From contig CAYXQC010000003.1 of assembly GCA_964467385.1 (NCBI GenBank), positions 37,798-101,797 of the forward strand: a DNA stretch of 64,000 nt, written 5' to 3'. The DNA comes from an uncultured Candidatus Saccharibacteria bacterium. Lineage in GTDB: Bacteria; Patescibacteriota; Minisyncoccia; Phycocordibacterales; CAIZLB01. Below, piece by piece: positions 5,105 through 18,432 of this stretch. The first letter of the stretch is position 1, and each line of letters begins with the position of its first letter. A model generated the notes under the pieces. It had not been told where the DNA came from. It worked only from the letters and a program-made list of their open reading frames with translations, and did not search any database. A program made the translations under genes and the position numbers.

Positions 5105-5193
5105 GGAGACGTGTCAGAGTGGTCGAATGTGCCTCTTTGCTAAAGAGGTGGGCCTTTAAAAGGGTCCCGAGGGTTCGAATCCCTCCGTCTCCG
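5105..5193 (+). tRNA. tRNA-Ser (anticodon GCT), class II with long variable arm
   Basis: Acceptor stem GGAGACG/CGTCTCC, anticodon stem CCTCT/AGAGG with loop TTGCTAA, long variable arm, T-arm GAGGG-TTCGAAT-CCCTC, discriminator G. Confidence 0.8.
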
Positions 5194-5221
5194 CCTTGAC
5201 AATTTAGTATCGGCGTGACCC
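5174..5221 (+). repeat. attL-like direct repeat (tRNA-Ser 3' end plus downstream block)
   Basis: Identical 21 bp, then a diverged 9-nt patch and a second 18-bp block (TTAGTATCGGCGTGACCC) matching 18415-18432 at 16/18. Confidence 0.6.
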
Positions 5222-5270
5222 TATTACTCGCGGGAGTAGGGCGACCCACGTACCTACTAGATTGCACAAA

Positions 5271-5301
5271 ACACCAAGAGAATTCTCTTGGTGTTTTGTT
5301 G
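5271..5301 (+). terminator. Rho-independent terminator-like hairpin downstream of tRNA-Ser
   Basis: ACACCAAGAGA-ATT-CTCTTGGTGT followed by TTTGTTG. Confidence 0.5.
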
Positions 5302-5317
5302 TTTATATAATTATGAA

Positions 5318-6004
5318 ATGAATTTTGGGAAAGCTATTAAAACCATCACTAAACTTCTCAAGAAAGAAAAGCCTAAAACATTTAGCAGTTCTTGGATTTC
5401 TACCCGTTCTCCTCTCGTATATCACTTCATCAGAGTTAACTTTAGAACCGAAAATAACCACATAGACTGGGACAAGGTCACAGCGGCCCTCGATCCTAAG
5501 TATGCAAAGTGCTGGATGCGTTACAAACGCAAGGTTGCCAAGCCTTACGAGAATCAGATAGAGGTGGATATCATACTTACGAAGTACAAAGACAAGCTCT
5601 ACACCTTTGTCGCTCTTGTTGATGATGGTGATAAGGAAACAAGGAATCAGCTGATCATCGCTCTTGTCCGAATCGCCCAGAAAGGAAATATTCTCGCTCA
5701 ATTAGAACTTACGAAGTGGCTGAAGTATGTCGTCGATGATTGGGTCGATAAATATTACCCGCTATTTAAATGGAAGGGTTACACCGATGACATTGAAGAC
5801 AAGATCCATGGCTGTATTCGCTGTTACAAATACACCGGATCATTTCTTGGCTACTTGTTTAAAACGCTCGAATATTCTGGTCGTGGCATACGACCCCTTC
5901 AAGCATGGTCGCTTGATAAGAATGTCGGTGATGACGGTGCAACGATGATTGATTTCGTTGCTCAGGATAGTGAAACGGGAGAGGTGAAGTTGTTCGGGAG
6001 GTAA
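5318..6004 (+). CDS. Hypothetical protein (island cargo). Start probably at the internal ATG at 5318 rather than 5288, which overlaps the terminator.
   Basis: ORF track; no recognised motifs. Confidence 0.35.
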   Translation: MNFGKAIKTITKLLKKEKPKTFSSSWISTRSPLVYHFIRVNFRTENNHIDWDKVTAALDPKYAKCWMRYKRKVAKPYENQIEVDIILTKYKDKLYTFVALVDDGDKETRNQLIIALVRIAQKGNILAQLELTKWLKYVVDDWVDKYYPLFKWKGYTDDIEDKIHGCIRCYKYTGSFLGYLFKTLEYSGRGIRPLQAWSLDKNVGDDGATMIDFVAQDSETGEVKLFGR

Positions 6005-6023
6005 TTATTGATACTCGCTCTGT

Positions 6024-6866
6024 CTAAATTATTCTCCCGTCAATTTCGTGGAATAGATTACTGACCATGATAAGGCGACCGAGCGCATCGTGGTGCGGAA
6101 GTTGATCTTCGTCGCCGTGGCTAAGATTGTTTCTCCACCAGTGCATAATACCCATGGTGGTGAGCTTGAAGCCGAGTTGCTTATTGATCTCCTGCGGTGT
6201 TGATAGAGCGTTGAACTTTATTTTCGGGTTCTGTTCACTGAAAACAGCCGCCATCAAATCAGGTCCTTGCTTGTCATGAGTGCTTGTAAGGTCTTGGACC
6301 GTCTTCTCGAACCTTTCAAGAGCTTTCCTCACTGACTCGTTGATATGACCTTCGATGAACATCTTTTTGCAGTCAGGAAGAAGTGAGGGATGAAGAACGT
6401 ATGCATCCAAGATTTTCTGAATCGCTATCGGAGGCGGAACTGTCTTCGGTCTTTCCTTTGGAAGATTCATTGCCACAATTTCTGATTCAAGATCAATGTT
6501 GAGAGCCTTAAGTCGCGCTGAGAGTCCAAGAGCTTCAGCTTCCAATACGGGATCGCCTTTCTCGTGTCGCTTTTCTATCGCCTTCGGTAGCATCTCTCGC
6601 ACGAGGATTTTTATAGTTCTCGGCTTCTGGCAGTAAAGATTTCGCAGGAACTCGTAGAAAGATTCCTTTTTGTTGGCCGCCTTGGCGGGAAGATATTTCG
6701 ACAGACCCCTTTCTTTAGCAATGGTCGTCAAAGAAAAGGAGCTTCGGAATCCCGAAAGAGCAATGAGCTTCCCGAGCTGTTCCGCGAGTGCGCGGATTGC
6801 CTGAGTCTGCGGTGCTGTGACAGTTACTCTTTTCTTCGCAATCTTTTTCTTGGTTTTCTTTTTCAT
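6024..6866 (-). CDS. Hypothetical protein with a basic N-terminus and a C-terminal HEPN-like Rx4H motif. Possible Abi/toxin-like RNase domain.
   Basis: N-terminal MKKKTKKKIAKKR; C-terminal WRNNLSHGD fits the Rx4-6H HEPN signature; 4-nt gap to the upstream Zn-ribbon gene. Confidence 0.35.
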   Translation of the reverse strand: MKKKTKKKIAKKRVTVTAPQTQAIRALAEQLGKLIALSGFRSSFSLTTIAKERGLSKYLPAKAANKKESFYEFLRNLYCQKPRTIKILVREMLPKAIEKRHEKGDPVLEAEALGLSARLKALNIDLESEIVAMNLPKERPKTVPPPIAIQKILDAYVLHPSLLPDCKKMFIEGHINESVRKALERFEKTVQDLTSTHDKQGPDLMAAVFSEQNPKIKFNALSTPQEINKQLGFKLTTMGIMHWWRNNLSHGDEDQLPHHDALGRLIMVSNLFHEIDGRII

Positions 6867-6869
6867 AAA

Positions 6870-7400
6870 TTATTTGGTCGTGTGGACATGGAATCCGCAG
6901 GCTCGGCAGATTCCGTTTATGTTGGCATCTCCGTTTACGTGGAATTCAAAGTTTTCCTTACCGCAAACAGAGCAAACAACTCGACCGCCACTGCGTTTCG
7001 TGGCATCAATCGTATCCAGTATGTCTCTCACGTTCAGAACGTATTTGTTTACCTGTTCACGGTCGTTCAGGTATCCCTGCACCCAGAGATTCGTTGTGAT
7101 TCTTCCTGCAGATGTTTCCTTGTAGTGAATCTTTCCCTCGTTCAGAAGTTTCTCCCAGTACTGCCGTGTCTTGCCATATTCTCTAGCCACATCGCCAGAA
7201 GACATGAGTGAGGCGTTATGGGGAATATATCCCTGATTTTCCATATTTTCTACGCAGGCTCGGATGCCTTCAGCGAGCGCACTCTCTTTTTCCTCCTTGG
7301 AAAATTCGCCAGTCAAATCAACACCGAGGCTCAAAGTGCCACCACTGCTTGTGTTGGCGTGCCAATAGAATTTTCGTTTGTCGTCTTTGGTTGCAGACAT
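6870..7400 (-). CDS. Hypothetical protein with C-terminal CxxC...CxxC zinc-ribbon
   Basis: CSVCGKENFEFHVNGDANINGICRACGFHVHTTK at the C-terminus; co-transcribed orientation with 6024-6866. Confidence 0.4.
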   Translation of the reverse strand: MSATKDDKRKFYWHANTSSGGTLSLGVDLTGEFSKEEKESALAEGIRACVENMENQGYIPHNASLMSSGDVAREYGKTRQYWEKLLNEGKIHYKETSAGRITTNLWVQGYLNDREQVNKYVLNVRDILDTIDATKRSGGRVVCSVCGKENFEFHVNGDANINGICRACGFHVHTTK

Positions 7401-7538
7401 GGCATAAGTATATGCTTGTTGGTTTCTAAATGCAACCAGTTATCTAATACACACGATGTATCAGATAGTATTAGTTTGTATCAGATTAATACGGCTATAA
7501 GGTATGTAGCCGATTACGGCGGATTACAGCCGAAAGGC

Positions 7539-8888
7539 TTATTCCTTCACCAATGTCAGCGTTTTATCCTTGTATATAATTCTCGATCGCAGATTGGCCA
7601 ACAGCTCCCGCTTCTCACTCGTCATGCCTTCCTTGAGGATGTACTTGGCGTAGTTTCGGATATCGGTATCCTTGTCGGTCTTTATCTTCTCCGTTGCTCC
7701 AAGCACAGATCTTTGGAATATATTGTATCGATTTATCTCCTCCTCAAGCTTCTGCCTCATGCCAAGCTCGTTGATGTTCACCTTGTCGAGAATTTTCAGA
7801 AGTTCAGTAATCAGTTCTTCTTCACGAATATATTTGTTCTTGCAGTTTCGGTCCCTAGCTCGTGAGCATGAGTAGTAGATGTAGCGGTTGGCACCTCCGT
7901 CCTTTAGTTGCTTCCATTTCTCCTCAGCCGATATGCCTGATTGGCAGTATCCGCATGTGAAGAGTTTGGTGAAGGCGAACTCCTTCGTTTCTCGCACGAT
8001 CTGGTCGCGCTTCAACTGTGCTTTCGTTTTCTCGAACAGTTCTTGAGTGATCAAGGGCTGATGTTTTCCCTGATACCAGTTGCCGCTTTCCCTTGGTCTT
8101 TCAAATATTCCGTAGTAGAAGGGATTCTCTAGGATTCGATACACACCACTCAGGGTCAGAGGTCTGTTTCCACGTGTATGGAAATTCAGCTCGAACCTCA
8201 TCCAGTTGTATACCTTTCTTCCAGACCATTGCTCATATGCAACTTTCTCGAACATCTTCTTGATGATTGGCGCTCTCTGCGGATCCACAAGCACCTGACC
8301 TTTCTTGTCCATATGCTTTTGATTGAGATATCCAAGCGGTGCCGTTCCGACCCATAGTCCCATCTCGCATCGGGTTCTTAGTCCTCGCTTCACGTTGATG
8401 CCTCGATTGTCATTCTCCAATTTTGCTTGGCTACACAGAATCATCAGCATGAACTTGTCGTTCGGGCTGTTGGTGAATCTTTGGCCGTAGGTGCGGATGT
8501 CCTGCAGATAATTTCCGTCCATAAGATCGATCACTTTTCCGAGATCGCCTGCGTTTCTTGAAATACGGTCTGGTGCCCACGTCAGGATGCCGTTAAACTT
8601 TCCTTGCTTGATCTCATCCACGATCTCATTGAAGACGGGGCGCTGCCCAGTCTCCTTAGCCGAGTGCGATTCTCGCTTCATGGTCACGATCTCCAATCCT
8701 TCTCTTTCTGCCAGTTGGAGCATCTCATTGATCTGGCTATCAATGCTCAAAACCTGCCGTTCCTCCGATTCCGTCGACTTTCTTGCGTAAAGGCAGTATT
8801 TCACCTTTACGGGGCTTGCTACTTTGGCCGCAGTCCCTAATGGCTCTGGTCCTTGTATTTTTGTCATACAACACAAGGAATGACGCAA
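7539..8888 (-). CDS. Large serine recombinase (resolvase/invertase catalytic domain + recombinase domain + zinc-ribbon). True start may be an internal Met.
   Basis: N-terminal YARKSTESEE (the catalytic Ser within the Y-x-R-x-S-T motif), an approximately 450-aa multi-domain length, and C-terminal cysteine pairs CGYC...SCSRARDRNC. Confidence 0.8.
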   Translation of the reverse strand: MRHSLCCMTKIQGPEPLGTAAKVASPVKVKYCLYARKSTESEERQVLSIDSQINEMLQLAEREGLEIVTMKRESHSAKETGQRPVFNEIVDEIKQGKFNGILTWAPDRISRNAGDLGKVIDLMDGNYLQDIRTYGQRFTNSPNDKFMLMILCSQAKLENDNRGINVKRGLRTRCEMGLWVGTAPLGYLNQKHMDKKGQVLVDPQRAPIIKKMFEKVAYEQWSGRKVYNWMRFELNFHTRGNRPLTLSGVYRILENPFYYGIFERPRESGNWYQGKHQPLITQELFEKTKAQLKRDQIVRETKEFAFTKLFTCGYCQSGISAEEKWKQLKDGGANRYIYYSCSRARDRNCKNKYIREEELITELLKILDKVNINELGMRQKLEEEINRYNIFQRSVLGATEKIKTDKDTDIRNYAKYILKEGMTSEKRELLANLRSRIIYKDKTLTLVKE

Positions 8889-8959: not shown

Positions 8960-9225
8960 GTGGTTAAGGAAGTTAACCAAAATCGGTAAATTTCGTTAAC
9001 CAGAACTGGTTAACTTTGTTAACACACAAAAGAAAGAGAAATATAGAGAAACTTAGTATTAGGTACAACCTGTGGAAAAACTAGTCTAGTAGGTAGACTA
9101 GTCTAAAATTCAGACTACTTTTGGTCTATTTAGTAGACCGCAAGTAGTCTACGAAGTAGACACACAAAATCTAGGAAACAAAGGGAAACCTAGTATTAGG
9201 GATCGGGTGTGGACAAAGGGTCAAA
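8960..9225. promoter_or_regulatory. Palindrome/repeat cluster upstream of the recombinase gene. Candidate operator or recombination site.
   Basis: - Four GTTAAC-containing palindromes, including the 20-bp GTTAACCAGAACTGGTTAAC at 8995-9014.
- A 23-bp palindrome CTAGTCTAGTAGGTAGACTAGTC around 9081-9105.
- Further GTAGAC/GTCTAC half-sites to 9172.
- About 37-bp imperfect direct repeats (ACYTAGTATTAGG...TGTGGA.AAA) at 9049-9087 and 9187-9223 bracketing them. Confidence 0.4.
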
Positions 9226-9531
9226 AGCCACGACCTCTTTCCTTAATTTCTCAAAATCTCTGAAAACCCTGTTGTATATCCTTATGACTTTTCCTTTGCG
9301 CTTCTTGGTATCGCCATTCTCAAGAAAATCGACGAGGTCATCGTCGATGAAGGAAGCGAGAGAAATGTATGAGGCGACCAATAGCCTAATCCGCTCCCTG
9401 ATCGCCATCTTCAGATGCCTCTTTGACTCAGGCAACTTTGAGATACGGTTAAAAGGAGTAGAGCCTGTTGGCTCATGGTATTTGAAATGCTTTGAGGCTT
9501 CTATGATTGCTTCGATATCATCGTCTTTCAC
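9196..9531 (-). CDS. Hypothetical small protein (island)
   Basis: ORF track only; acidic/basic mixed, no motif recognised. Confidence 0.3.
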   Translation of the reverse strand: MKDDDIEAIIEASKHFKYHEPTGSTPFNRISKLPESKRHLKMAIRERIRLLVASYISLASFIDDDLVDFLENGDTKKRKGKVIRIYNRVFRDFEKLRKEVVAFDPLSTPDP

Positions 9532-9634: not shown

Positions 9635-10633
9635 ATGCCTCTAAAAATGCTTCACTTAAGGTCGTTTTTATGCTTTAATATAGCCATTATGGAATTAGTT
9701 CGACTATTCAAAAATCTTACTAAAAACGATGCTGCCATTGCAGGTGGCAAAGGAGCCTCTTTAGGTGAGATGTCCCAAGCAGGAATCCCGGTCCCTCCGG
9801 GATTTGTTGTATTGTCGGAATCCTTCGAGCAATTTCTTCGAGAAACTGATCTTATTCAGGAAATTGATGCAATTCTCGATAACTTAAGTCACAAGGAGAT
9901 TCATCTAGTGGAAGCAGCATCAGAAAAAATCCGCGCACTTATTCTTTCCAAAGAGATGCCGAAAGATATTGCAACTGAAATAAGTAAATCTTCCAAAGAA
10001 CTTGGTTCAGAATTTGTAGCCGTACGATCGTCGGCCACTGCAGAGGATGGCCAAGATCACTCATGGGCAGGTCAACTCGAGTCTTATTTGAACGTAAAAG
10101 AAAATGATGTACTTAATAAAGTTAAGCACTGTTGGGCTTCGCTCTTTACCCCACGTGCAATCTTTTATCGTTTTGAAAAAGAACTTCACACAACAAAGAT
10201 TTCTGTGGCGGTTGTGGTGCAAAAAATGGTTGATTCAGAAATTTCTGGAATTGCATTCTCGGTTCATCCTGTAACTGAAGACAAGAACCAACTTATTATT
10301 GAAGCAGGATATGGATTGGGAGAAGCAATAGTGTCGGGATCGATTACCCCCGATAGTTATGTGGTTGAAAAAGAACCTCGGAAAATTCTCGATATCAATA
10401 TAGCAACACAAACCGAGGCACTCTATAAAAATACGGCGGGAGGAAATACATGGAAAAACATCCATGAACCAAAGGCAAGCTCTCAGGTATTAAAGGAGGT
10501 TCAAATTCTTGAGCTTGCTGATATAATTTTAAATATCGAGAAACATTACGGATTCCCCTGTGACATCGAGTGGGCGTTTGAAAGCGGAAAGTTTTATATT
10601 GTGCAAAGCAGACCCATTACTACATTAACTTAA
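9635..10633 (+). CDS. PEP-synthase / pyruvate-phosphate-dikinase N-terminal ATP-binding (PPDK_N) domain protein. Forms the N-terminal part of a rifampin-phosphotransferase-like enzyme.
   Basis: AIAGGKGASLGEMSQAGIPVPPGFVV and VAVRSSATAEDG motifs are typical of the PPDK_N nucleotide-binding domain. The ORF ends at an in-frame TAA three codons before the next ORF. Confidence 0.7.
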   Translation: MPLKMLHLRSFLCFNIAIMELVRLFKNLTKNDAAIAGGKGASLGEMSQAGIPVPPGFVVLSESFEQFLRETDLIQEIDAILDNLSHKEIHLVEAASEKIRALILSKEMPKDIATEISKSSKELGSEFVAVRSSATAEDGQDHSWAGQLESYLNVKENDVLNKVKHCWASLFTPRAIFYRFEKELHTTKISVAVVVQKMVDSEISGIAFSVHPVTEDKNQLIIEAGYGLGEAIVSGSITPDSYVVEKEPRKILDINIATQTEALYKNTAGGNTWKNIHEPKASSQVLKEVQILELADIILNIEKHYGFPCDIEWAFESGKFYIVQSRPITTLT

Positions 10634-10642
10634 ATCAAATTT

Positions 10643-12181
10643 ATGAATACAAACATCGAACAATTATTACAAAAATATACATTAACTCCCGATTTACTCA
10701 CTGATCCATTGATGAGTCTTGATATGGCTAAACTTGGGGACGACATCACTTCTTTTAAAGAAGAAGGTCTTTCCCAAGGATTTATTCGTCGTCGCATCGT
10801 GCTTTTTATGGATGGCTATCGATATTCGCTTCGTGCAGCAGAAAAGAGATGGGGTATTGATTTTGGATTTTATGAAACTGGAAAAGAACCAGTGAAGAAA
10901 GTATATTTTTCAGGAAAATTTAACGATAATGCAGCCGTGGTTTGGTTACAGAAGATGAACGAAGATAAAGACTTTGGAAATAATCTCGTTGAAGAACTCA
11001 AGACAATAATTGAAATGGAGAAATACTTGGCCGCTTCTGTCTCACAAACAGAACTGTCTAAGGAACAAATTAAAAAACACTTGGAGAATCATCTTTCGTG
11101 GTGGATTCAATTTTTTGAATTTGGATTTCTGTGGTTTTGTGCAGAAAATATTCAACAAGACACAAACGCAAAAATAGAAAAGATCTGGAAAGATACACCA
11201 GAATCGCTTAAGGAATTTCTTGAGGGTGTTTACAGACCAATGGACTTACCTGTATCAAGTGTAGAACAGCGAGATATTCTTGATATCAGCCAATTACAAG
11301 GAGAGGAACTTGAAAAAGCGCTCGACGCCCATTGGAAGAAGTACAAGCACCTATCTCTCCATAATATTGATGATGAGCCTTTTGATAAGGACTACTATGT
11401 AAGTCGAATTAAATCTCTACAAAAAGAAGGAGAATATGCAAAACAAAAAGACTTATTAACCCATGCTGATGCAGAAATTGGTGAAGCGACAAGCCTTCTC
11501 AAGGGTGCGGATATTCCAGAGGAACTAAAAAATAGAATCGAGTTTGTTCGCTGGTTCATGTTTCTTCGAACTGAATCGGTCGACAATATGATGCTAGTGA
11601 ATTCCTCATACAGACATGTATTCGATTCTCTATCAAAGTTATTTGATTTACCGATAGAGGCAGTACTCAATATGACATACAAGGAAATATTTGAGAGTCT
11701 TGAGGCTGGTAAACTTACTCTTTCTAAAGAAGTTATACTGGATAGATTAGAAAATGGTTATGCTTACTTTATTGGATATCGAACTGAAGCATTGCTTACT
11801 GGAGATGATAGACAAAAACTTATTGATATCCTACATCCTGCAACAAACGAAGAAATTATTAAGGAAATAAAAGGACAGATTGCATACAAAGGTAAGATTC
11901 AAGCGATAGCACGAGTCATTCTTGACCGAAAAAATGCTTCCGAGCTACAAGAAGGTGAAATTCTTGTGACCGCCATGACATCTCCAGACTTCGTGCCAGC
12001 CATGAAGATTTCAGCGGGAATCATTACCAATGAAGGAGGAGTACTGTGTCATGCCGCTATCATGTCTCGCGAACTACGAAAGCCTTGTGTTATAGGTACT
12101 AAGACGGCTACCGATATAATAAAGACTGGGGATTTGGTTGAATTAGATGGTGATACTGGAATAATTAAAATTCTAAGCTAG
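10643..12181 (+). CDS. PEP-utilising-enzyme mobile (swivel His) domain protein. C-terminal part of the same RPH-like phosphotransferase.
   Basis: C-terminal GGVLCHAAIMSRELRKPCVIGT is the PEP-utilizers phosphohistidine domain signature, at the extreme C-terminus as in rifampin phosphotransferases. Same reading frame as 9635-10633. Confidence 0.7.
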   Translation: MNTNIEQLLQKYTLTPDLLTDPLMSLDMAKLGDDITSFKEEGLSQGFIRRRIVLFMDGYRYSLRAAEKRWGIDFGFYETGKEPVKKVYFSGKFNDNAAVVWLQKMNEDKDFGNNLVEELKTIIEMEKYLAASVSQTELSKEQIKKHLENHLSWWIQFFEFGFLWFCAENIQQDTNAKIEKIWKDTPESLKEFLEGVYRPMDLPVSSVEQRDILDISQLQGEELEKALDAHWKKYKHLSLHNIDDEPFDKDYYVSRIKSLQKEGEYAKQKDLLTHADAEIGEATSLLKGADIPEELKNRIEFVRWFMFLRTESVDNMMLVNSSYRHVFDSLSKLFDLPIEAVLNMTYKEIFESLEAGKLTLSKEVILDRLENGYAYFIGYRTEALLTGDDRQKLIDILHPATNEEIIKEIKGQIAYKGKIQAIARVILDRKNASELQEGEILVTAMTSPDFVPAMKISAGIITNEGGVLCHAAIMSRELRKPCVIGTKTATDIIKTGDLVELDGDTGIIKILS

Positions 12182-12183
12182 AT

Positions 12184-13026
12184 ATGAAAGAGTCTTTTCC
12201 AAACAATTCCGACGCTATAATCACCAGACATTCTATTCGAGGGGAAAACTCTGAATATGAAGGGCTGTCACCAGAAGGTATTGAGAAAGCAAAAGAAAGG
12301 GCAAAGGATTTCGTGGAAATTATTGAAAAATCTGAACCAGGTACGGTTATATTTTTTGGCGGTGGTTCAACAGAAGCTCGAACAACCTCCACTTTGGAAG
12401 TTTATGTGGATGAAACAAAAAGCTTGTTAAAAGAGAAAGAGGGTGTCTTGTTTTTCGATCAGGAATCAATATCAGAAAAAGCACAGCGTGGTCACCTGTC
12501 CGCAGCAGAAGAGCTTAAAAAAGAAGCAGATGATAATCCTGAGGCAAAAGTAGTTGTAGATCTACCGCTTGTTATTAAGGATTTTCTTAAAGACGAATGG
12601 TGGTATGAGGAAGATGGAACGGTTAAAGAGCCGTGGCAATCTTTATTAGATAAACATGGGAAAGATTACTCATCCATAGTTCGAGACTGGTTTGAGACTC
12701 AGGGAATGTATGATGGTGAGCAAAAGGTTCCTAAACCTATTGAAGTTGCTGAAAGCTATCTAAATGGAATTAAACGATTACAAGGTTTTGTTAGAAAGTT
12801 TTCAGGAGATAGGAACGTTAAAGTTGTAGTTGTCGGGCATAGCATTCAGATGGATGCTTTACTTACTTATTTGGCAAATGATGGGGTTGTAGATTTAGAA
12901 GGATTTGAAAATATCGGAGACAAAGTTGTAGATACAACTGAAATGTCTGTTATTGAACCTGATGAAGATGGAGGCATTCATCTTTCTTATAGGGGTAAAG
13001 AGTTTATTTTTGGAGAAAATCAATAA
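12184..13026 (+). CDS. Histidine phosphatase superfamily (phosphoglycerate-mutase-like) protein
   Basis: N-terminal ITRHSIRGEN (RHG-type catalytic motif) and VVVGHS later; start 2 nt after the preceding stop. Confidence 0.55.
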   Translation: MKESFPNNSDAIITRHSIRGENSEYEGLSPEGIEKAKERAKDFVEIIEKSEPGTVIFFGGGSTEARTTSTLEVYVDETKSLLKEKEGVLFFDQESISEKAQRGHLSAAEELKKEADDNPEAKVVVDLPLVIKDFLKDEWWYEEDGTVKEPWQSLLDKHGKDYSSIVRDWFETQGMYDGEQKVPKPIEVAESYLNGIKRLQGFVRKFSGDRNVKVVVVGHSIQMDALLTYLANDGVVDLEGFENIGDKVVDTTEMSVIEPDEDGGIHLSYRGKEFIFGENQ

Positions 13027-13031
13027 ATAAT

Positions 13032-15128
13032 CTAAATCCCAATATATGGAAATTGGGGTAAGTCATCTTCCTCAAAATCTTCCTGCTGTGCTGGTCTCTG
13101 AATAATTCTCTTGTCTTTTGCAATAGTGAGTACAAGCGCATCGGGAATAGACGAGTCGATACCTTCTTCAGTAAGTTCATCTCGATCAATCATTTTTCTC
13201 TTGCCATTCGTATCGGCATAAACCATGTACAGAAGATCATCGAAGACATGTCTCCCTACAAGCTTTCCAATCCTTAACCATCCTGTCAGTTTTGAATATG
13301 CCCTCGCCCAATTGTCGGCAAACAGGTTGCCATCAAACTGTGGTTGCTCATTCATAGTGATTCCGTACCGTTGTCGATTCCCATATTTGTTGATGTTGAA
13401 ATGACCAACTGCGAGATGTCTCAATAGATTGCACAATTCCTGCCCTCGATCTGCTTTGTCGATAAAAATGTTCTCGTCCGATATCGGCACGTCATGTATC
13501 TTTGCGAGTTCGATAACTTTTAAGACGACTGTCGTCACATCCTGCATCGGCTCATGATACAGAACCTCAGCCGCATTCTCAGCTCTAAGCACGATAGTTG
13601 AGTAAGTCCTGTTTTTGTCTGCCAACACCACTCCCAGTCTTTTGTCTCCGAAATACGAAACCCTTTCCTGATAGCTGTCATTAAGAAGTCTTTCATCAAA
13701 GAGTGCATGATACCCCTTTGGTATATTCGATTCCTGATCCATCATGCTCCATACGAGGATGCAGAATGCATCTGAAAGGTCATCGTGCTTTTCCGTGCCA
13801 AAGCCCACGAGCTGTTCGATCAGCTTCTCAGCGCCATATCGAGGGAAGAGCACTGTTCCTGATTGAATGTGGTGTGAGATGAGTGACAGTCTAGCTCGCT
13901 TATCCGATCCTTGAGTCTTGTATTCCTTTGCGGGAAAGTTTTCCGATTTCAGATGGTCGATGATCGACTTCTGGTATCCCGCGTTCTCGATCCATACGTG
14001 TGCGTTTCCTAAAGTCTTTGACAGCGACTTAATCTTCTCAATCGTCTTCGGGAAATCCATTCGCTCGTTCACAGGATTCGGCAACACATAAATCTTCAAT
14101 GCCTTCTTTCTGCCGTATATCTTTCCTGAAACCATCGCTGTATAGTCCGCATTGTCCTTCTCGCTGATTGCGGGATCAATGCCGGTAGCGGTGAACCGAC
14201 ACGCATCAGCAGGCAGTGAATCGTAATATCGTATCCATTCAGGACGAATTACTTGATCATCATCTGCAATAATCTGGAGCATGTATTCTCTCTGCCATGC
14301 TTGAAGGCTCGGTACTGATTTTCTCAAAGTTTCTACTTCAGCATCCGTTCGGTACTTGTCCTTCCATAAAGGCTGATTATTCTCATCAAGGAATGGATAC
14401 GCCCTTGCAACGCCATCCATTCGACCTTCGAGAATGGCTTTCTTCAATCTCATGATGATCGAATCGTTATGAAGCTTCGTGCCGATCACAATTAATCTCG
14501 TGTCCTTGTCTCCAAGAGGAATGATGTCTCCCATAAGCCAGTTGAACATCTTGTCTCGACTCTCTTGGGTTTTGACGATATCCAAATCCTCAAGGTCGTC
14601 AGCAATTATCAAATCTGGCCTATGCGCCCCGTGCTTGATACCTCGAATCGAGTTATCGATTGAAGCTACTGTCACTCTCGCTCCGTATTTCGGCAACACG
14701 ATTGATACCGCACGCCACTCATCATTCGGCTCCTCGAATGGTCCGAGGTCTAATCTAAGTAATCGGTTGTGCTCAAGCTCCAGTTTGATGTTTGCAAGAT
14801 ACTGCCGTGCTTGACTTTCGGTCTTGGCGATAATTAAAACAAATTTTCTCTGCTGCATTCCGAGGATAGACCAGATCGCATAGGAAGTCCCCATGATCGT
14901 GGTCTTTCCTGATCCTCGGAATGCTTCGATAACCATGGTCTTATGAGACGCTTCGGTGAGTTCAAACAATTCCTTATGAAATTGCGCCGTCTTGTATTTA
15001 ACATAGTGGGAAAAGTAGATGTGGAAGAACCAGTGATGACAGGCTCTTGTAGTCGCACGCCTCACTCGTTGATTCTTAACTATCTCATCAATCTTTTCTG
15101 CCGATACTTCGGTGTCGTGGTTATGCAT
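13032..15128 (-). CDS. Phage terminase large subunit-like protein (ATPase + nuclease)
   Basis: Walker A EAFRGSGKTT after an N-terminal extension of about 60 aa; Walker B-like LIIADDLED; approximately 700-aa length; immediately preceded by a small HTH protein with overlapping stop/start. Confidence 0.6.
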   Translation of the reverse strand: MHNHDTEVSAEKIDEIVKNQRVRRATTRACHHWFFHIYFSHYVKYKTAQFHKELFELTEASHKTMVIEAFRGSGKTTIMGTSYAIWSILGMQQRKFVLIIAKTESQARQYLANIKLELEHNRLLRLDLGPFEEPNDEWRAVSIVLPKYGARVTVASIDNSIRGIKHGAHRPDLIIADDLEDLDIVKTQESRDKMFNWLMGDIIPLGDKDTRLIVIGTKLHNDSIIMRLKKAILEGRMDGVARAYPFLDENNQPLWKDKYRTDAEVETLRKSVPSLQAWQREYMLQIIADDDQVIRPEWIRYYDSLPADACRFTATGIDPAISEKDNADYTAMVSGKIYGRKKALKIYVLPNPVNERMDFPKTIEKIKSLSKTLGNAHVWIENAGYQKSIIDHLKSENFPAKEYKTQGSDKRARLSLISHHIQSGTVLFPRYGAEKLIEQLVGFGTEKHDDLSDAFCILVWSMMDQESNIPKGYHALFDERLLNDSYQERVSYFGDKRLGVVLADKNRTYSTIVLRAENAAEVLYHEPMQDVTTVVLKVIELAKIHDVPISDENIFIDKADRGQELCNLLRHLAVGHFNINKYGNRQRYGITMNEQPQFDGNLFADNWARAYSKLTGWLRIGKLVGRHVFDDLLYMVYADTNGKRKMIDRDELTEEGIDSSIPDALVLTIAKDKRIIQRPAQQEDFEEDDLPQFPYIGI

Positions 15129-15558
15129 GGTCGATTGTAGTTAATCCGAGAGCCTCACGCACCATCTTTTCTTCTTGAGGAGTGAGAGCTTCTTCCTCTG
15201 CGGTCTTGGTGGTAAGTTCGACCTTGTTTCTATACTTAGGATGATGCTGTCTGAGCCACAATTGGATTGCAGGAAAATTCTTTTCCTTGATGAGTGTAAT
15301 GAGCTGACTTTCGGAAAGATCATTGATCATTTCCTCGCCGTCCTGCATGGCCTCGTCAGTCGCTTTCTTGAATTTCGCATCATCACGTCTCCATCGGTAG
15401 TAGGTGCTACGACCAATATTGCTTCTCTCACATGCAATCTGCACGATCGGTATCTTTCGGAGCTGTTCCAAGACGACTTTCTGTTCAACTTTGTTTCTTT
15501 TTAGGGTTGATTCTCTTTTCATAATTTCATTGCTTTTAAGTTTGTTAATTTTTCCCAT
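15121..15558 (-). CDS. Small HTH DNA-binding protein. Probable terminase small subunit.
   Basis: 145 aa; helix-turn-helix IACERSNIGRSTYYRWRR; 8-nt overlap with the terminase large subunit start. Confidence 0.4.
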   Translation of the reverse strand: MGKINKLKSNEIMKRESTLKRNKVEQKVVLEQLRKIPIVQIACERSNIGRSTYYRWRRDDAKFKKATDEAMQDGEEMINDLSESQLITLIKEKNFPAIQLWLRQHHPKYRNKVELTTKTAEEEALTPQEEKMVREALGLTTIDHA

Positions 15559-16349
15559 CTAATAATTGCGGTCTGTACGTACTCGGGATCAAGCTCTATG
15601 GCGATACATGCTCGCTTGGTCTGCTCGCACGCCAATAGACATGTTCCAGAGCCAAGAAAGGCATCGTAAACGACATTGCCAATGCGAGTGCTATTGAGGA
15701 TGAGATGTCGAATAAGTGGCACAGGCTTAGTCGTAGGGTGGAATGGACTCTTGTTCGGCTTCGGATGAACGATGACACTCTTGTCTTTTGATTTTAAGAA
15801 TTCATGCGTTCCATACCATCCGTATGCGATGAGTTCATGCATCGGTGCATAATCCATTCTTCCAACCACTGCTTGAGTTTTCACCCACACAATCAATTGA
15901 GCGAATTTACAGCCGATTGATTTCATTCCGTCACGCAAGGCGAATATCATCTTGTCGGAGTTGAAGATGTACAGAGCATTCTTCCGTTCAAGATGTGGAG
16001 TTACCGCACTAAGCCAGTCTTCAGTGAACTTCTTGTATTCCTCGTCAGACTGAAGGTGATCATTCTCAATCTTCTTGCCTTTGAGCAATGCTTTAAAGTT
16101 CTGCTTGCTCTCCGCAACCGCAACTCCGTAGGGCGGATCGGAAATGATTGCCTTAATTTTTCTTTTACTAACCACCCTTGAGACGAACTCCTTGTCTCTC
16201 GAATCACCGCAAGCAATCGTGTGTTCGCCAAGTTGAAAGATGTCTCCCGCCTTAATTGAGTTTTGTGACTTTTTCATTTGGAGAGAGTTGTCTAAAGCGG
16301 TTGATAATGAGTTGGCAGAATATCGGTTCCATTTCGCAGAGATACGCAA
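15519..16349 (-). CDS. DNA N6-adenine/N4-cytosine methyltransferase (N6_N4_Mtase family). Real start probably the internal Met near 16277.
   Basis: IISDPPYG catalytic motif and C-terminal FLGSGT SAM-binding motif. Confidence 0.75.
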   Translation of the reverse strand: MRISAKWNRYSANSLSTALDNSLQMKKSQNSIKAGDIFQLGEHTIACGDSRDKEFVSRVVSKRKIKAIISDPPYGVAVAESKQNFKALLKGKKIENDHLQSDEEYKKFTEDWLSAVTPHLERKNALYIFNSDKMIFALRDGMKSIGCKFAQLIVWVKTQAVVGRMDYAPMHELIAYGWYGTHEFLKSKDKSVIVHPKPNKSPFHPTTKPVPLIRHLILNSTRIGNVVYDAFLGSGTCLLACEQTKRACIAIELDPEYVQTAIIRWEKLTNLKAMKL

Positions 16350-17538
16350 TGCGTTTCAACTGTTCGCACGCTGACAGGATGCTTCCTGATCCGCCAGTAA
16401 TATCGAGGACGATATCACCAGGGCGACTACACCTACGCAATGCTTTCTCATGCAAGGTAGGAGGCTTCTGTGTCGGATGTGCATATTCCTGTGACGGCAG
16501 TCGCTTCACGAGCCAGATATTGAGCATGTCTAGAATATCCTCGACTAATCTGTTGCCAGTCGTGGTTTCTTTGTTCAATACTTCATTGAGATTTTTAATC
16601 TTGTCAGACAAGTAAGGTTTTCCTCTCGTGCCGTATACGCAATATTCGGTGACCTTGTTGAATGCCACCTGCGGTGTCGGGGAAGCATTGTCTTTAACCC
16701 ACAAGCAGAGTCGCTTTGAATCGATACCAAGCTCCTTGTAGAGTTCTTGGAATAGCCAAACGTATCGCTCATCGCACCAGAAGAAAACGTGAGCGTCTGG
16801 CTTGGTCACGCTCAATGCGTTTTGGATAAGTGTCTTTGCGAATGTTTTATACTCGTCATCCGTTTTGCTGTCGTCAGTTGTTCCACCATATTTAGCTTTA
16901 TTGCCGACACCTTTGTCATACGAGAGACCGATGTTGTATGGAGGATCGGTATTGATCATGTCGGCAAGATTTTCATTCATGAGAAACTTGATCATGTTTT
17001 GATCTGTAGAATTGCCGCAGAGAAGTCTGTGGCGACCGAGAGCAAAGTAGTCGCCGAATTTTATATCGGTTTCCTTTATTTTCTCCAACTCTTTTTCCTC
17101 ATCGAAGTTGTCGTCACTCACTTCGAGATTGTCATCAAAGATATTAGTGAGATCGGTTGAATCAAAGCCTGCCATGAGCAGGGTGTCGATGTCGAAGTCG
17201 CTCGCCAGTATCTCCCAGTCCCAAGAGCCGCCTGAACGATTGCTTGTTAATAAATATTGTTTGAACTCAGAAGGGGTGAGCTTGCGATTCGGTGTTCTCA
17301 CCTCGATTTCTTCTTCACCTCGACCTAGCAGTTGCAGCGCTTTGATGCGCTGATGGCCTGCGACGATCTTTCCGTCAGTGTTGATCGCAGGAAGCTCTGC
17401 AAGATTGAACTTCTTCAAGCTTTCCTTTAAGTCTTCCATCTGCTTGTCCGTGATTTTCCTCGGATTCTTCTCGTAGGGCAGAAGATCGTTTACCCGGCGC
17501 TTTTCGGTACGCCATACCAGTGGTGTTAATTTGGACAT
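16252..17538 (-). CDS. ParB-like nuclease domain fused to DNA methyltransferase (phage-type ParB-MTase)
   Basis: N-terminal ParB/Srx-like region (KITDKQMEDLKESLKKFNLAELPAINTDGKIVAGHQRIKAL), INTDPPYN catalytic motif, C-terminal DITGGSGS SAM motif. Confidence 0.75.
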   Translation of the reverse strand: MSKLTPLVWRTEKRRVNDLLPYEKNPRKITDKQMEDLKESLKKFNLAELPAINTDGKIVAGHQRIKALQLLGRGEEEIEVRTPNRKLTPSEFKQYLLTSNRSGGSWDWEILASDFDIDTLLMAGFDSTDLTNIFDDNLEVSDDNFDEEKELEKIKETDIKFGDYFALGRHRLLCGNSTDQNMIKFLMNENLADMINTDPPYNIGLSYDKGVGNKAKYGGTTDDSKTDDEYKTFAKTLIQNALSVTKPDAHVFFWCDERYVWLFQELYKELGIDSKRLCLWVKDNASPTPQVAFNKVTEYCVYGTRGKPYLSDKIKNLNEVLNKETTTGNRLVEDILDMLNIWLVKRLPSQEYAHPTQKPPTLHEKALRRCSRPGDIVLDITGGSGSILSACEQLKRIAYLCEMEPIFCQLIINRFRQLSPNEKVTKLN

Positions 17539-17599
17539 ATATATTTACGGTTATTAATAATAGGCACAGTATGCGTTCCACAACTTGATCTAAATGTAG

Positions 17600-17775
17600 G
17601 AATTACTCTTGCTCCTCACTTAATCATGCGTGTGAAAAAGTGATTTTTGTGTTGCATTACTCTTCTGTCCTGAGACAATGGTAAATCCCAAAAAGTGACA
17701 AATCGTGGTGCATTACTTTTGCCATCCATAATGCTACTCGTGAAAAAATGCAAAAAGGTGTGCATTACTTTCTCT
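17600..17775. repeat. Periodic iteron-like repeats upstream of the ParB-MTase/terminase operon
   Basis: Four copies of ..TGCATTACTYTT / ATTACTCTT at 17603, 17656, 17712 and 17764 (spacing 52-56 bp). The three downstream copies at 17630-17664, 17690-17720 and 17739-17772 are preceded by AAAAAGTGA-type blocks. Confidence 0.45.
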
Positions 17776-18172
17776 ACCCAGAATCGTATGCTGGCCAACG
17801 TATCCGATTAGTGGGTATTGAAAATGCTACTGGATAAAAAACGTGTAAAATCGTGCGGAATCAATTTCACTTTCTTATCCTCTAAAAGCGTAGCGGACCC
17901 GAACCCTTCTGTCTGGGGGAATTACCTGGCAGAGAATGAATATGAAAATCAGTCCAGCAATCCTCTGAAAATATGCAAAATCAAAATGGCACACTGCTTT
18001 GGCACAGTGTGCTGTTCCAATACCTCTGAAATACCCTTATGTTGCTTGGCGAAAGATGTCGAAACCATCCTTACGGGGCTTGTTTGAAACACTGCCCCTG
18101 CGTGTGCCAAATTGTGCCAATTTGGGAAAGGGAGACCCCGACCCACGAACCCCAAATTGATCAGTCCAAATA

Positions 18173-18229
18173 TGCTAAAATACCCTTACAAGGTCTCACC
18201 CATGGGGTACTTAACCCACGATGCCCGCA
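18173..18229 (+). repeat. Copy A of a 57-nt duplicated block with an extended -10 promoter-like start
   Basis: TGCTAAAATACCCTTA ... GGTACTTAACCCACGATGCCCGCA; followed by hairpin ACCAGTTTTAACTGGT. Confidence 0.4.
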
Positions 18230-18384
18230 TTGACGATACGAACCAGTTTTAACTGGTGAGTGTCGGCAACTTTCTGATACAGTAGGAAGCGAAGCTTTTG
18301 GGGATTCGAAAAGGTTCTCCCATATTTTCGAGAATGAGCGTAGCGAGTTTGAGAAAATGGGAAACCTGTACTGAAGCTGTAAGC

Positions 18385-18432
18385 TTCGAATCCCTCCGTC
18401 TCCGCATTAAGAACTTGGTATCGGCATGACCC
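18385..18432 (+). repeat. attR-like direct repeat (displaced copy of the tRNA-Ser 3' end, no 5' half)
   Basis: TTCGAATCCCTCCGTCTCCGC identical to 5174-5194; no complementary T-stem or acceptor 5' strand upstream. Confidence 0.6.

Follow-up and report, generated by a model that had tools for sequence, protein, structure and literature searches.

The window, the whole 64-kb stretch of DNA that was analysed, comes from a CPR (Paceibacterota) genome and holds, next to a tRNA-Ser(GCT) gene, an integrated mobile element with packaging, methylase and recombinase genes, as an earlier sequence-only reading had claimed. The genes and internal features of the element are as follows:

5318..6004, + strand: orf228, the terminal core gene, sigma-factor-like with a region-2 fold (true start likely the ATG at 5318)
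6024..6866, - strand: slot 2, HEPN-domain protein of the Hypoth_Ymh / TIGR02391 family (PF09509, 1e-20; TIGR02391)
6870..7400, - strand: its partner, a 176-aa protein with a C-terminal CxxC...CxxC zinc-ribbon motif (sequence motif)
7539..8888, - strand: large serine recombinase (LSR), the integrase (PF00239, PF07508, PF13408; phrog_95, 1.9e-60)
9038..9217, no strand: pair of 43-nt direct repeats (9038-9080 and 9175-9217; repeat search), intergenic, upstream of orf111 and the LSR
9196..9531, - strand: orf111, a small conserved gene upstream of the LSR (85-92% aa identity in L057, L059, L060 and L076)
9635..13026, + strand: slot 1 cargo bay with three ORFs, GC 0.38
9635-10633, + strand: cargo ORF 1, PPDK_N ATP-grasp (profile search)
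10643-12181, + strand: cargo ORF 2, C-terminal PEP-utilizers swivel domain (profile search)
12184-13026, + strand: cargo ORF 3, histidine phosphatase (weak His_Phos_1 match)
13032..15128, - strand: large terminase subunit TerL, 698 aa (phrog_38, 9.9e-78)
15121..15558, - strand: TerS-like HTH protein (phrog_4044, 2.7e-10; HTH_Tnp_1_2, 2.5e-5, under the family cut-off)
15519..16349, - strand: N6/N4 DNA methyltransferase (MTase; PF01555, 6.9e-31; phrog_498, 2.2e-64)
16252..17538, - strand: ParB-like N-terminal domain fused to an N6/N4 DNA methyltransferase (PF01555, 3.4e-29; phrog_498, 6.5e-86; phrog_620 ParB-like, 9.1e-24)

These matches bore out the gene calls made from the letters alone: the LSR, TerL and TerS-like HTH protein, the ParB-MTase fusion and second N6/N4 MTase, the HEPN-like / Zn-ribbon pair, and the RPH-like phosphotransferase with its histidine phosphatase. 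TerL comprises a complete terminase ATPase and nuclease (aa 19-469), followed by a second domain with a terminase-nuclease fold (aa 465-698; 13035-13736) that has no invariant acidic residues and is probably inactive. The Walker A/B and nuclease acidic residues of TerL are invariant in 20 homologues, and judged by its residues the enzyme looks functional. TerS and the TerL start overlap by 8 nt; the TerS call rests on a modest HTH-region match and on position. The LSR has Resolvase, Recombinase and Zn_ribbon_recom domains and the catalytic-serine motif YARKSTESEE, and is 442 aa long if it starts, as is likely, at the ATG at 8867. The 43-nt repeat pair upstream is likewise found in L057 and L059 and is a candidate regulatory site. 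For orf111, profile searches of the Pfam/NCBIfam/PHROGs type gave no family match; that it acts as a directionality factor or regulator is no more than a guess.

The insertion site and the element ends comprise these features:

5105..5195, + strand: intact tRNA-Ser(GCT), the integration target (ARAGORN; Rfam RF00005, 52.5 bits)
5174..5221, + strand: attL region, an exact 21-nt copy (5174-5194) and, behind it, the P' arm of the element CTTGACAATTTAGTATCGGCGTGACCC (repeat search, homology to L057)
5266..5299, + strand: terminator-like hairpin just inside attL, perfect 17-bp arms and then a T run (kept in L057/L058)
17539..18229, no strand: conserved non-coding end region of ~690 bp (86-93% identity to L057/L059)
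18230..18384, no strand: 155-bp segment from the D1 end to the repeat, found solely in this copy (comparison with relatives)
18385..18432, + strand: second repeat copy, the exact 21-nt tRNA-Ser(GCT) 3' end and a B'-type arm ATTAAGAACTTGGTATCGGCATGACCC (repeat search)
18433..19199, no strand: what is probably left of another element, beyond the coordinates under study, ending in a second D1 copy at 19138-19199
18439-19080, - strand: SAM methyltransferase gene within that remnant

The B arm of attL is the 3' end of the tRNA gene. The 21-mer TTCGAATCCCTCCGTCTCCGC has exactly two copies in the window, at 5174-5194 and 18385-18405, and such a repeat arose in 0/100 dinucleotide-preserving shuffles, with up to 2 mismatches permitted; the similarity spans 48 nt at 88% identity (5174-5221 vs 18385-18432). 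Hence the repeat, correctly described before, is non-random and supports a real insertion. Neither ARAGORN nor Rfam found a tRNA in the second copy (18385-18432), which therefore lacks the tRNA 5' half, again as claimed.

The simple attL/attR picture of the sequence-only reading held for integration at the tRNA-Ser 3' end, but not for the right-hand side. The integrase is a serine recombinase, and the conserved terminal arm (...TTAACCCACGATGCCCGC) stops at 18228/18229. On the attL side, homology to the sister element L057 extends to CCGCC (5191-5195); on the right, the homology of L057, L058 and L074 ceases at 18228-18231, and in L074 and L057 flanking B'-type DNA directly adjoins the D1 end. 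The element's conserved end is thus 18229, i.e. 155 bp inside the second repeat copy. The end region contains conserved repeats (17699-17732 / 17751-17784) and is closed by the family-wide terminal arm D1 (18168-18229, ...GGGGTACTTAACCCACGATGCCCGCA), which mimics a tRNA 3' end; the region is a candidate for the P arm of attP, for a pac site or for a promoter region. The segment at 18230-18384 was either left by an earlier occupant or is an attP adaptor; a comparable segment of ~215 bp is present in L059. The B'-type arm ATTAAGAACTTGGTATCGGCATGACCC also lies behind a tRNA-Ser or tRNA-Ser fragment in L030, L004, L005 and L074, and the element-free relatives L005 and L024 carry short tRNA-3' duplications only 65-134 nt apart. 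By this comparison, an earlier occupant may have left the exact 21-nt copy at 18385-18405 as a scar. Nested att scars are present at the locus, and the right boundary could be placed at either 18229 or 18405; the element extends over about 5195-18229, with an outer scar to 18405. DNA beyond 19199 resembles the sequence downstream of the tRNA-Ser genes of relatives. At the tRNA-Ser(GCT) site of the closest species-level relatives (L002, L005-L008), the element genes are not found downstream.

The backbone is foreign in composition, which also supports a real insertion. Its GC content is 0.45 vs 0.39-0.41 for the host, and its tetranucleotide distance is 0.25-0.29 vs 0.156 ± 0.020 for host 4-kb chunks, i.e. 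4-6 SD out. The claim of a GC-richer interior therefore stood for the backbone but not for the 3.4-kb cargo (9.6-13.0 kb), which is host-like (GC 0.38). In this cargo, the PPDK_N and PEP-utilizers ORFs share a frame and are parted by a lone TAA at the domain boundary; the pair is RPH/PEP-synthase-like, split over two ORFs. In sister elements, slot 1 is filled by other, unrelated genes: APH + MTase + GNAT, a P-type ATPase, radical SAM + aminotransferase, or HTH + unknowns. In slot 2, the HEPN protein has PADLOC matches (PD-Lambda-3_B, 1.5e-8; Aga_HEPN, 4e-8) and probably serves as a defence or toxin module; L088 has an AAA+/S8-peptidase pair instead. Its 176-aa partner had no family match in Pfam, PHROGs, PADLOC or NCBIfam; the L057 and L059 homologues are 97% aa identical.

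The insert might be a defence island, chiefly a mobile carrier of anti-phage and resistance cargo whose TerS and TerL would be an interference device and not its own transfer machinery; they might, for instance, cut invading phage DNA, package it wrongly or titrate the portals of phages. Besides the HEPN matches in slot 2, the bays of relatives hold type I restriction-modification, an Eco57I-like MTase + SNF2/PLD, MTase + ResIII + PD-(D/E)XK + PIF1, TaqI restriction-modification, a SMODS-like gene and HamA, and satellites are known for interfering with helper packaging (PMC10085698). However, TerL, TerS and the MTases had no PADLOC match except to generic MTase models, and self-packaging and interference are not exclusive in known satellites. 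A catalytically intact full terminase that has a cognate TerS and is conserved more tightly than the cargo is consistent with an element that packages its own DNA. We regard this explanation, which also leaves cell-to-cell movement of the element unaccounted for, as unlikely.

The insert belongs, as an intact copy, to a widespread and apparently hitherto undescribed family of small mobile elements (~6-17 kb) in Paceibacteria (CPR bacteria). Its shared backbone of ParB-MTase, MTase, TerS, TerL, cargo bay, LSR and a second variable slot terminating in a sigma-like gene was seen in dozens of Paceibacteria and IMG/VR contigs, with identical order in L057/58, L059, L060, L074, L076, L080/81, L087 and L088. 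All of the ~38 IMG/VR and metagenome relatives with TerL identity of at least 39% carry ParB-MTase/TerS/TerL, and the LSR where the contig reaches it; restriction-modification or helicase-nuclease systems lie between TerL and LSR on the opposite strand. An IMG/VR exact-word scan gave no close relative of the element. Insertion sites differ: L059 and L077 lie at tRNA-Ser(GGA), with repeats of 18 nt (13.4 kb apart) and 33 nt (16.8 kb apart), respectively, and further copies adjoin tRNA-Gln or tRNA-Ser(TGA).

Portal, capsid and tail families had 0 matches among ORFs of at least 100 aa (Pfam, PHROGs), in agreement with the sequence-only reading, and no replication module was found in the element. 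Where the TerL-LSR interval of relatives was read, Pfam and PHROGs likewise gave no capsid or portal genes. As a positive control we used the phages L127, L129 and L130 (TerL 34-37% identical), which have portal, protease and major head protein genes immediately downstream of TerL. Gene order and families of the element otherwise match such temperate-phage packaging modules, its TerL being of the phrog_38 (Terminase_6) type, but here TerL carries the extra nuclease-fold domain and is followed by convergent cargo. An autonomous small virus, its capsid and portal too divergent to be recognised among unannotated ORFs, is extremely unlikely. The 176-aa zinc-ribbon protein, orf111 and an 89-aa ORF do lack family matches, but the unexplained coding capacity amounts to <400 aa, in ORFs no longer than 176 aa, and could not hold both a portal and an HK97-fold capsid. 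For orf228, the largest of the unknowns, the fold is that of sigma region 2, and minimal members of ~5-6 kb (L091, L094) consist of MTase, TerS, TerL, LSR and orf228 only.

Selection was estimated from the window vs L057/L059 (dS 0.5-1.7, near-saturated). Backbone dN/dS was 0.02-0.11, with values of 0.02 for TerL, 0.04-0.065 for TerS, 0.03-0.05 for the MTases, 0.026 for the LSR, 0.085 for orf228 and 0.03-0.11 for orf111; the slot 2 genes gave 0.016-0.018 (zinc-ribbon protein) and 0.026-0.047 (HEPN). These ratios indicate strong purifying selection on all backbone genes. They tell against the degraded prophage that had been offered as one reading, in which the integrase and packaging end of a temperate phage would be left after deletion of the structural genes, with host DNA in their place. 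The phage-like gene order does run as far as TerL, which abuts convergent DNA of host composition, and several att scars lie at the locus, so decay does occur here. Yet no backbone gene is relaxed, the same truncation point and minimal gene set recur in dozens of independent copies with differing sites and cargo, and no relative with TerL identity of at least 39% keeps structural genes, whereas more distant true phages do. We consider degradation very unlikely and this reading effectively refuted.

The observed anatomy and selection, the membership of a family, the lack of virion genes and the variety of sites and cargo lead us to infer a satellite-like element with both terminase subunits its own, packaged in helper-phage capsids. 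An intact packaging enzyme, methylases and a serine integrase, together with swappable cargo and no capsid genes, make capsid theft from a helper the most likely lifestyle, and we hold this best reading to be somewhat better than an even bet. The LSR inserts the element immediately beyond the 3' end of a tRNA gene, and the direct repeat is explained by the element's own end, which mimics a tRNA 3' end. The element retains TerS and TerL as a full terminase, along with a pair of DNA methyltransferases and a sigma-like factor, and has no portal, capsid, tail or replication genes. After excision, its terminase would recognise element DNA and pump it into procapsids of a co-infecting or co-resident helper phage; the methylases may shield the transferred DNA against restriction, and the sigma-like protein may drive transcription of the element. 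The two variable slots would bear host-beneficial cargo, here the RPH/PEP-synthase-like phosphotransferase and phosphatase in slot 1 and the HEPN / Zn-ribbon pair in slot 2. Several points count against the satellite reading. TerL must dock onto a foreign portal, and we know of no satellite that depends on a TerL of its own while lacking its own capsid and portal. The analysis identified no helper phage and detected no tRNA at the site of the sister copy L057, and a rise in copy number before packaging is unexplained because no replication module was found. None of the loci examined had a terminal overlap, and no excised, circular or encapsidated form was seen.

That no helper was found would also suit a capsid-independent terminase, with TerS/TerL and the ParB-MTase processing or translocating element DNA for another transfer or maintenance route that needs no virion, such as supplying linear DNA for host competence/pilus uptake or resolving replication intermediates. 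The capsid-less architecture holds throughout the TerL clade of at least 39% identity, which is set well apart from capsid-linked TerLs, and TerL has been remodelled recurrently (the second nuclease fold here, tandem TerL paralogues in relatives). On the other hand, the ATPase and nuclease motifs are of the packaging-enzyme type, phage late/packaging operons typically begin with ParB-MTase, MTase, TerS and TerL in this order, and a TerL functioning without a portal has, to our knowledge, no precedent. We therefore judge this route improbable.

Known satellites use terminase genes to redirect packaging, and some have serine recombinases (PMC10085698; PMC9618062; tycheposon preprint). PICIs / SaPIs are likewise small, site-specifically integrated islands that have no tail and capsid shell genes, carry accessory and defence cargo and a TerS-type protein thought to redirect packaging, and share a presumed helper dependence. 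Of the earlier "satellite/PICI-like" label, however, only the first half survived. PICI was rejected: the element has no primase-replicase, AlpA/Stl/MerR regulator or capsid-morphogenesis (size-redirection) gene, and differs in its large serine recombinase, complete TerL besides TerS, two DNA methylases, sigma-like factor and CPR host. The cfPICIs also encode both TerS and TerL, but are defined by capsid, portal, head-tail adaptor and connector (PMC10085698), none of which is present here or in the examined relatives.

Tycheposons (Prochlorococcus) and marine VEIMEs share tRNA 3'-end integration with flanking partial tRNA copies, modular structure with variable cargo and, in a minority, large serine recombinases; some members have terS and are found in virus particles (PMC9618062; tycheposon preprint). 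Replication modules (primase, helicase or polymerase) are usual there and absent from this family. In the available text of these sources, TerL is not reported (PMC9618062; tycheposon preprint), and PICI-like tycheposons with packaging genes are described as never having additional cargo (tycheposon preprint); this family combines TerS, TerL, methylases and cargo. SCCmec-type cassettes, mobilised by Ccr large serine recombinases, similarly insert cargo at the 3' end of a conserved housekeeping gene between direct repeats and accumulate tandem/composite arrays and remnants at one site. SCC elements target rlmH, not a tRNA, and have no terminase / phage-type genes; CcrB is the top NCBIfam match of the element's LSR (2.3e-36), with a score of 125.6, far under the family cut-off of 900.

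The roughly 13-kb insert beside tRNA-Ser(GCT) is an intact copy of a selected, mobile family that integrates beside tRNA genes, carries a complete terminase and swappable cargo, and has no virion or replication genes. The tRNA itself is intact at 5105–5195 (ARAGORN and Rfam). There are just two exact copies of its last 21 nt (TTCGAATCCCTCCGTCTCCGC) in the 64-kb window, at 5174–5194 and 18385–18405, as the sequence-only reading had claimed, and none of 100 dinucleotide-preserving shuffles gave such a repeat, even with two mismatches allowed. The imperfect continuation of about 48 bp described there was recovered as well (48 nt at 88%), and the second copy does lack the tRNA 5′ half, no tRNA being called at it by ARAGORN or Rfam. 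A second tRNA-Ser with the unusual anticodon ACT (ARAGORN) lies 1.4–6 kb past tRNA-Ser(GCT) in close relatives (L002, L005–L008, L011 and L023, L-numbers denoting fetched loci of relatives, sister elements or IMG/VR contigs; e.g. L005:2977–3064), and the window has no such gene. The 3′ end of this second gene does not agree with the window copy, so the gene was rejected as the origin of the repeat.

Every earlier gene call, namely the large serine recombinase (LSR), the large terminase subunit (TerL), a TerS-like small subunit, two DNA methyltransferases (MTases), a HEPN/Zn-ribbon pair, a phosphotransferase and a phosphatase, survived profile searches. The LSR has a resolvase catalytic domain with the serine nucleophile (PF00239, 2.5e-18, aa 33–177; motif YARKSTESEE) and a C-terminal recombinase domain with zinc ribbon (PF07508, 8.3e-13; PF13408, 1.9e-9), and matches the phrog_95 integrase at 1.9e-60. 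The TerS-like HTH protein (phrog_4044, 2.7e-10) overlaps the start of TerL (phrog_38, 9.9e-78). A ParB-MTase fusion and a second N6/N4 MTase are present, and the HEPN protein (Hypoth_Ymh, 1e-20) adjoins a CxxC...CxxC protein. No element ORF matched a portal, capsid or tail family in Pfam or PHROGs, which bears out the proposed lack of these genes within the repeats. Searches of Pfam, PHROG and NCBIfam likewise gave no match to a primase, helicase or Rep, nor to an AlpA/MerR/Stl-type regulator; the sole regulator-like gene is the sigma-like orf228, which was rejected as a hidden tyrosine integrase on account of its fold. Two direct-repeat pairs in non-coding DNA, candidates for operator, pac or origin sequences, are both kept in L057 and L059; one is of 34 nt spaced 52 nt (17699–17784), the other of 43 nt spaced 137 nt (9038–9217).

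The interior had been described as GC-richer, which holds for two backbone blocks (GC 0.45) that are tetranucleotide outliers, at distances of 0.25 and 0.29 to the host versus 0.156 ± 0.020 (maximum 0.200) for host 4-kb chunks. It does not hold for the 3.4-kb cargo block, which is host-like (GC 0.38; host 0.39–0.41).

The window belongs to a contig of 185 kb (JACCDT011579363.1, assembly GCA_013565695.1). Its record number and that of L074 (JACCDZ011688720.1) point to assemblies of millions of contigs, so that the CPR contig is probably a passenger, from an environmental or associated bacterium, in a large project that sequenced non-CPR DNA. The flanking pilM gene has its relatives in Paceibacterota/'Taylorbacteria' MAGs, hence the host is a CPR bacterium, in line with the CPR-type genome suggested earlier. 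TerL homologues of ~700 aa with 60–96% identity are found on many CPR contigs, and the family is abundant in Paceibacteria metagenomes, with TerL homologues in the thousands and orf228 homologues in the hundreds. The copies share one backbone order: ParB-MTase, MTase, TerS and TerL; convergent cargo; orf111 and LSR; a second variable slot; orf228; and the tRNA. Slot 1, between TerL and LSR (9635–13026 in the window), holds other cargo in each copy, and the neighbouring tRNA genes vary as well; they are listed here together with slot 2, beside orf228.

Variable slots and neighbouring tRNA genes of family members
Slot 1, window: RPH/PEP-synthase-like pair and phosphatase
Slot 1, L057: APH, MTase and GNAT
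Slot 1, L080/81: P-type ATPase
Slot 1, L087: radical SAM and aminotransferase
Slot 1, L059/L088: HTH and unknowns
Slot 2, window: HEPN and Zn-ribbon
Slot 2, L088: AAA+/S8-peptidase pair
Neighbour tRNA, L059: tRNA-Ser(GGA), 18-nt repeat 13.4 kb apart
Neighbour tRNA, L077: tRNA-Ser(GGA), 33-nt repeat 16.8 kb apart
Neighbour tRNA, L076 and L083: tRNA-Gln
Neighbour tRNA, L078: tRNA-Ser(TGA)

Compared with L057/L059, the window is just 82–88% identical in nucleotide sequence, and its proteins are 91–99% identical. We computed dN/dS for these comparisons, in which dS was 0.5–1.7.

dN/dS of element genes, window versus L057/L059
TerL: 0.02
TerS: 0.04–0.065
MTases: 0.03–0.05
LSR: 0.026
Zn-ribbon protein: 0.016
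HEPN: 0.03–0.05
orf228: 0.085
orf111: 0.03–0.11

Low values on all backbone genes (0.02–0.11) show that the element is not a decaying prophage, and with structural genes absent as well, an intact or cryptic prophage was rejected. The sequence-only reading had offered a satellite/PICI-like element or a degraded prophage. The satellite/integrative-island kind stands as the best reading; the degraded prophage falls with the dN/dS values, and the PICI definition with the missing primase-replicase and regulator. Some IMG/VR contigs hold two separate ParB-MTase/TerS/TerL sets (L096 and L111, L106 and L115, L120 and L121; L126), and an LSR goes with each as far as the contig extends. A genome can thus carry more than one member of the family, in some cases within 10 kb of each other.

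The capsid-less state extends across the TerL clade. Exact peptide words found no close relatives in IMG/VR, and the alignment query gave only TerLs of at most 54% identity; the alignment-based scan yielded 80 loci. All those with a TerL at least 39% identical (L089–L126) have ParB-MTase/TerS/TerL, and an LSR where the contig reaches. Where 4–8 kb separate TerL from LSR, most of the genes in between run on the opposite strand; among the intervening genes are type I restriction-modification, an Eco57I-like MTase with SNF2/PLD, and an MTase with ResIII, PD-(D/E)XK and PIF1. In further copies the cargo includes TaqI restriction-modification, a SMODS-like gene or HamA, and in the element copy L077 TerL is followed by a LexA-like repressor and a helicase, not by head genes. 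Portal and capsid genes were absent from the element and from the sister copies read. As a positive control, three phage-like contigs with TerLs 34–37% identical (L127, L129 and L130) showed a portal, a protease and a major head protein directly after TerL. In temperate phages, too, TerL is encoded next to the portal/head genes of the same virus, which is not so here, and the best isolated-phage TerL is ~27% identical. An unrecognised small virus is very unlikely. The defence genes of the clade also fit a rival reading, a defence island in which the terminase does no more than interfere with phages; PADLOC returned no match for TerL, TerS or the cargo. IMG/VR files these loci as viral genomes on the strength of the terminase, so that counts of CPR 'viruses' are inflated.

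In TerL (698 aa), the Walker A and Walker B residues of the ASCE ATPase, K75 (GSGKT) and D177/D178/E180, do not vary among 20 homologues, and aa 57–217 are matched by the PDB TerL chains 8dgc and 4bij. The RNase-H-like nuclease is matched by TIGR01630 over aa 333–463 at 39.4 bits, slightly below the 41.65 cut-off, and its acidic residues D318, E381 and D449/D450/D453 are again invariant (20 homologues). The terminase profile spans aa 19–469 only, and the C-terminal 234 aa give a confident model (pLDDT 84.5) of a further nuclease fold. This domain has no invariant acidic residue, and the position of the first catalytic Asp reads GVVLA versus GIDPA; judged by these residues, the fold is probably catalytically dead. 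An internal duplication of the nuclease domain was rejected, since hhalign of the C-terminal against the first nuclease domain was non-significant (E 0.17). The C-terminal profile matches the C-terminal halves of many 470–550-aa proteins, which suggests a nuclease-domain fusion from another TerL lineage rather than a recent duplication. Tandem full-length TerL paralogues occur in the IMG/VR relatives L095, L098, L099, L101, L103 and L124 (e.g. L098:2279–3982 and 3861–5564); they are mutually 49–59% identical, with Walker A/B and nuclease acidic residues intact in both.

The left end of the element was bounded by homology with L057, which spans the element-side att arm P′ as far as CCGCC at 5191–5195; by sequence comparison the crossover is placeable only within or left of CCGC(C) at 5191–5195. 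At the right end, homology with L057, L058 and L074 ceases at 18228–18231, the end of D1 (18168–18229), a conserved 62-nt motif (...GGGGTACTTAACCCACGATGCCCGCA) resembling a tRNA 3′ end. No Rfam match at E ≤ 1 was obtained over 17500–19320, either in the right-end region or in D1. In L074 and L057 the flanking DNA adjoins the D1 end directly and is of the same type as that which follows the second repeat copy in the window, ATTAAGAAnTTnGTATCG...GACCC (the target-side arm, B′). From this abutment D1 looks like the family's P arm, the other element-side arm. The sister copies L057, L074, L087 and L088 have the D1 end against B′-type DNA and no long repeat. Integration at a tRNA 3′ end with a partial tRNA copy, a tycheposon trait, is present in the window, L059 and L077 (repeats of 18–33 nt).

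Between D1 and the exact 21-nt tRNA copy, the window has 155 unique bp; L059 is nested likewise, with D1, ~215 bp and an 18-nt tRNA copy. Two further features lie beyond.

18439–19080, minus strand, SAM-dependent methyltransferase gene between the second tRNA-fragment copy and D1b
19138–19199, D1b, a copy of D1 beyond the SAM-MTase gene, at a third junction further right, 79% identical to 18168–18229

Some 60 nt past D1b stands the motif TGATGAGAAAGACGGAGCG, which is found at an equal distance downstream of tRNA-Ser genes in the relatives L007 and L008. The segment 18433–19199 resembles what a previous insertion at this tRNA would leave behind. The simplest account would be serial integrations into one tRNA hot spot, giving in order the tRNA, the intact element (~5195–18229), two remnants (one of 155 bp with the tRNA copy at its end, then one of 0.8 kb with the SAM-MTase and D1b at its end), and, from 19200, host DNA. 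On this account the site bears a genuine att scar in the 21-nt repeat, though perhaps not this element's own attR.

Relatives without the element (L005, L024) have 16–19-nt tRNA-3′ copies only 65–134 nt downstream of intact tRNA-Ser genes (L005:8720–8880, L005:2850–3010 and, in L024, ~134 nt past 1617), followed by B′-type arms. These duplications represent either att-flanked units in miniature or scars left when former elements were deleted. In L030, a 5-kb LSR element lies between the tRNA and a 12-nt copy with the same B′ arm. The closest relatives at species level (L002, L005–L008) are missing the 13-kb insert. No unambiguous empty tRNA-Ser site was found among relatives, because synteny right of the tRNA is not kept, the P′ and B′ arms are alike, and L004 carries a D1-like end 515 nt downstream. 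Terminal overlaps indicating circular or excised forms were seen in no fetched locus, nor did the analysis yield evidence of a helper phage or of particles. At the LSR-side junction of L057 (L057:21300–21420, GCA_030680695.1) no tRNA was detected, only degenerate GTTCGAATC-like motifs, and pilM lies on the opposite side relative to the window, suggesting a rearrangement or a decayed target.

Among known systems, PICIs as defined by SatelliteFinder (PMC10085698) share an integrase, here of the serine and usually of the tyrosine type. The element falls outside that definition, since the primase-replicase module and the AlpA/MerR/Stl regulator are missing. Of the small terminase subunit and/or capsid-morphogenesis gene that the definition also names, it has a TerS-like protein and no capsid-morphogenesis gene was found; its TerL is atypical for PICIs (PMC10085698). 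A cfPICI encodes its own capsid, portal, head-tail adaptor and connector plus TerS and TerL (PMC10085698), of which only the two terminase subunits were found here. Tycheposons and VEIMEs, as described in the sources consulted (PMC9618062; tycheposon preprint), are alike in that they target tRNA genes, are flanked by partial tRNA repeats and in some cases have an LSR or terS; they usually have replication modules, which are missing here, and TerL and methylases are added. The tycheposon hallmark is a tyrosine recombinase or LSR together with a primase, helicase or polymerase, and of these the Pfam, PHROG and NCBIfam searches found only the LSR here. For cargo cassettes driven by an LSR, and for arrays of scars where a conserved gene has its 3′ end, SCCmec offers a good analogue. 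A full-text literature search of incomplete coverage, and hence no proof of novelty, did not find this architecture described. We regard the element as a variant of the satellite/integrative-island kind that is widespread in CPR and has several unusual features.

CPR/Patescibacteria have tiny genomes. To our knowledge, few mobile elements are recognised in them and their gene exchange is largely unknown. The element is an intact copy of a family moving among tRNA sites and shuttling restriction-modification, other defence and resistance-like cargo in CPR. In the life cycle we infer, the LSR would mediate excision, TerS would recognise element DNA (candidate site: the conserved, repeat-bearing non-coding end of 690 bp), and TerL would drive packaging into procapsids of a helper phage; the methylases would protect the DNA in the next host, and the sigma-like factor would run element transcription. 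A rival to packaging is that the terminase is used capsid-independently. A broader proposal takes in both: the TerL clade (at least 39% identity) would consist of Patescibacteria-wide elements that have long kept a complete terminase and never encoded a capsid, as a new satellite strategy or, more radically, for capsid-independent DNA processing or transfer, and either way would be a major unrecognised vehicle of CPR defence and resistance genes. We consider this proposal unlikely. If the satellite strategy were true, members would bring both terminase subunits and steal only procapsids, and the extra nuclease fold or tandem TerLs would have adapted them to foreign portals. Taken by itself, the window's element, if it is a satellite, may represent a new design, with both terminase subunits and nothing of the shell. 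It would then also help in tracing CPR phages, since any helper needs a portal compatible with it. The chimeric TerL with its second, probably inactive nuclease fold and the putative tRNA-mimicking attP arm of a serine integrase are leads for terminase and integrase biology.

Slot 1 of the window holds a PPDK_N ORF, a PEP-utilizers ORF and a weak histidine-phosphatase match. The first two are in one frame, separated by a single TAA exactly at the domain boundary (10631–10643) with an ATG 9 nt after it; either the gene is split or it acquired a nonsense mutation very recently. Their layout of ATP-grasp, unmatched middle domain and swivel His domain gives a predicted RPH/PigC-like architecture. 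The rifampin phosphotransferase model NF041857 scored 290 and 67 bits on the two ORFs versus a cut-off of 999; on the N-terminal ORF, PEP synthase models outscored the RPH model, and all NCBIfam scores were far under their cut-offs. With RPH taken as a single ~860-aa polypeptide (ATP-grasp, substrate-binding and swivel His domains) above the NCBIfam cut-off, the pair falls outside the definition. Elsewhere, the window contains ordinary host features, including a tmRNA at 35586–36027 (Rfam, 74.5 bits) and a tRNA-Ile(TAT) at 32284–32358.
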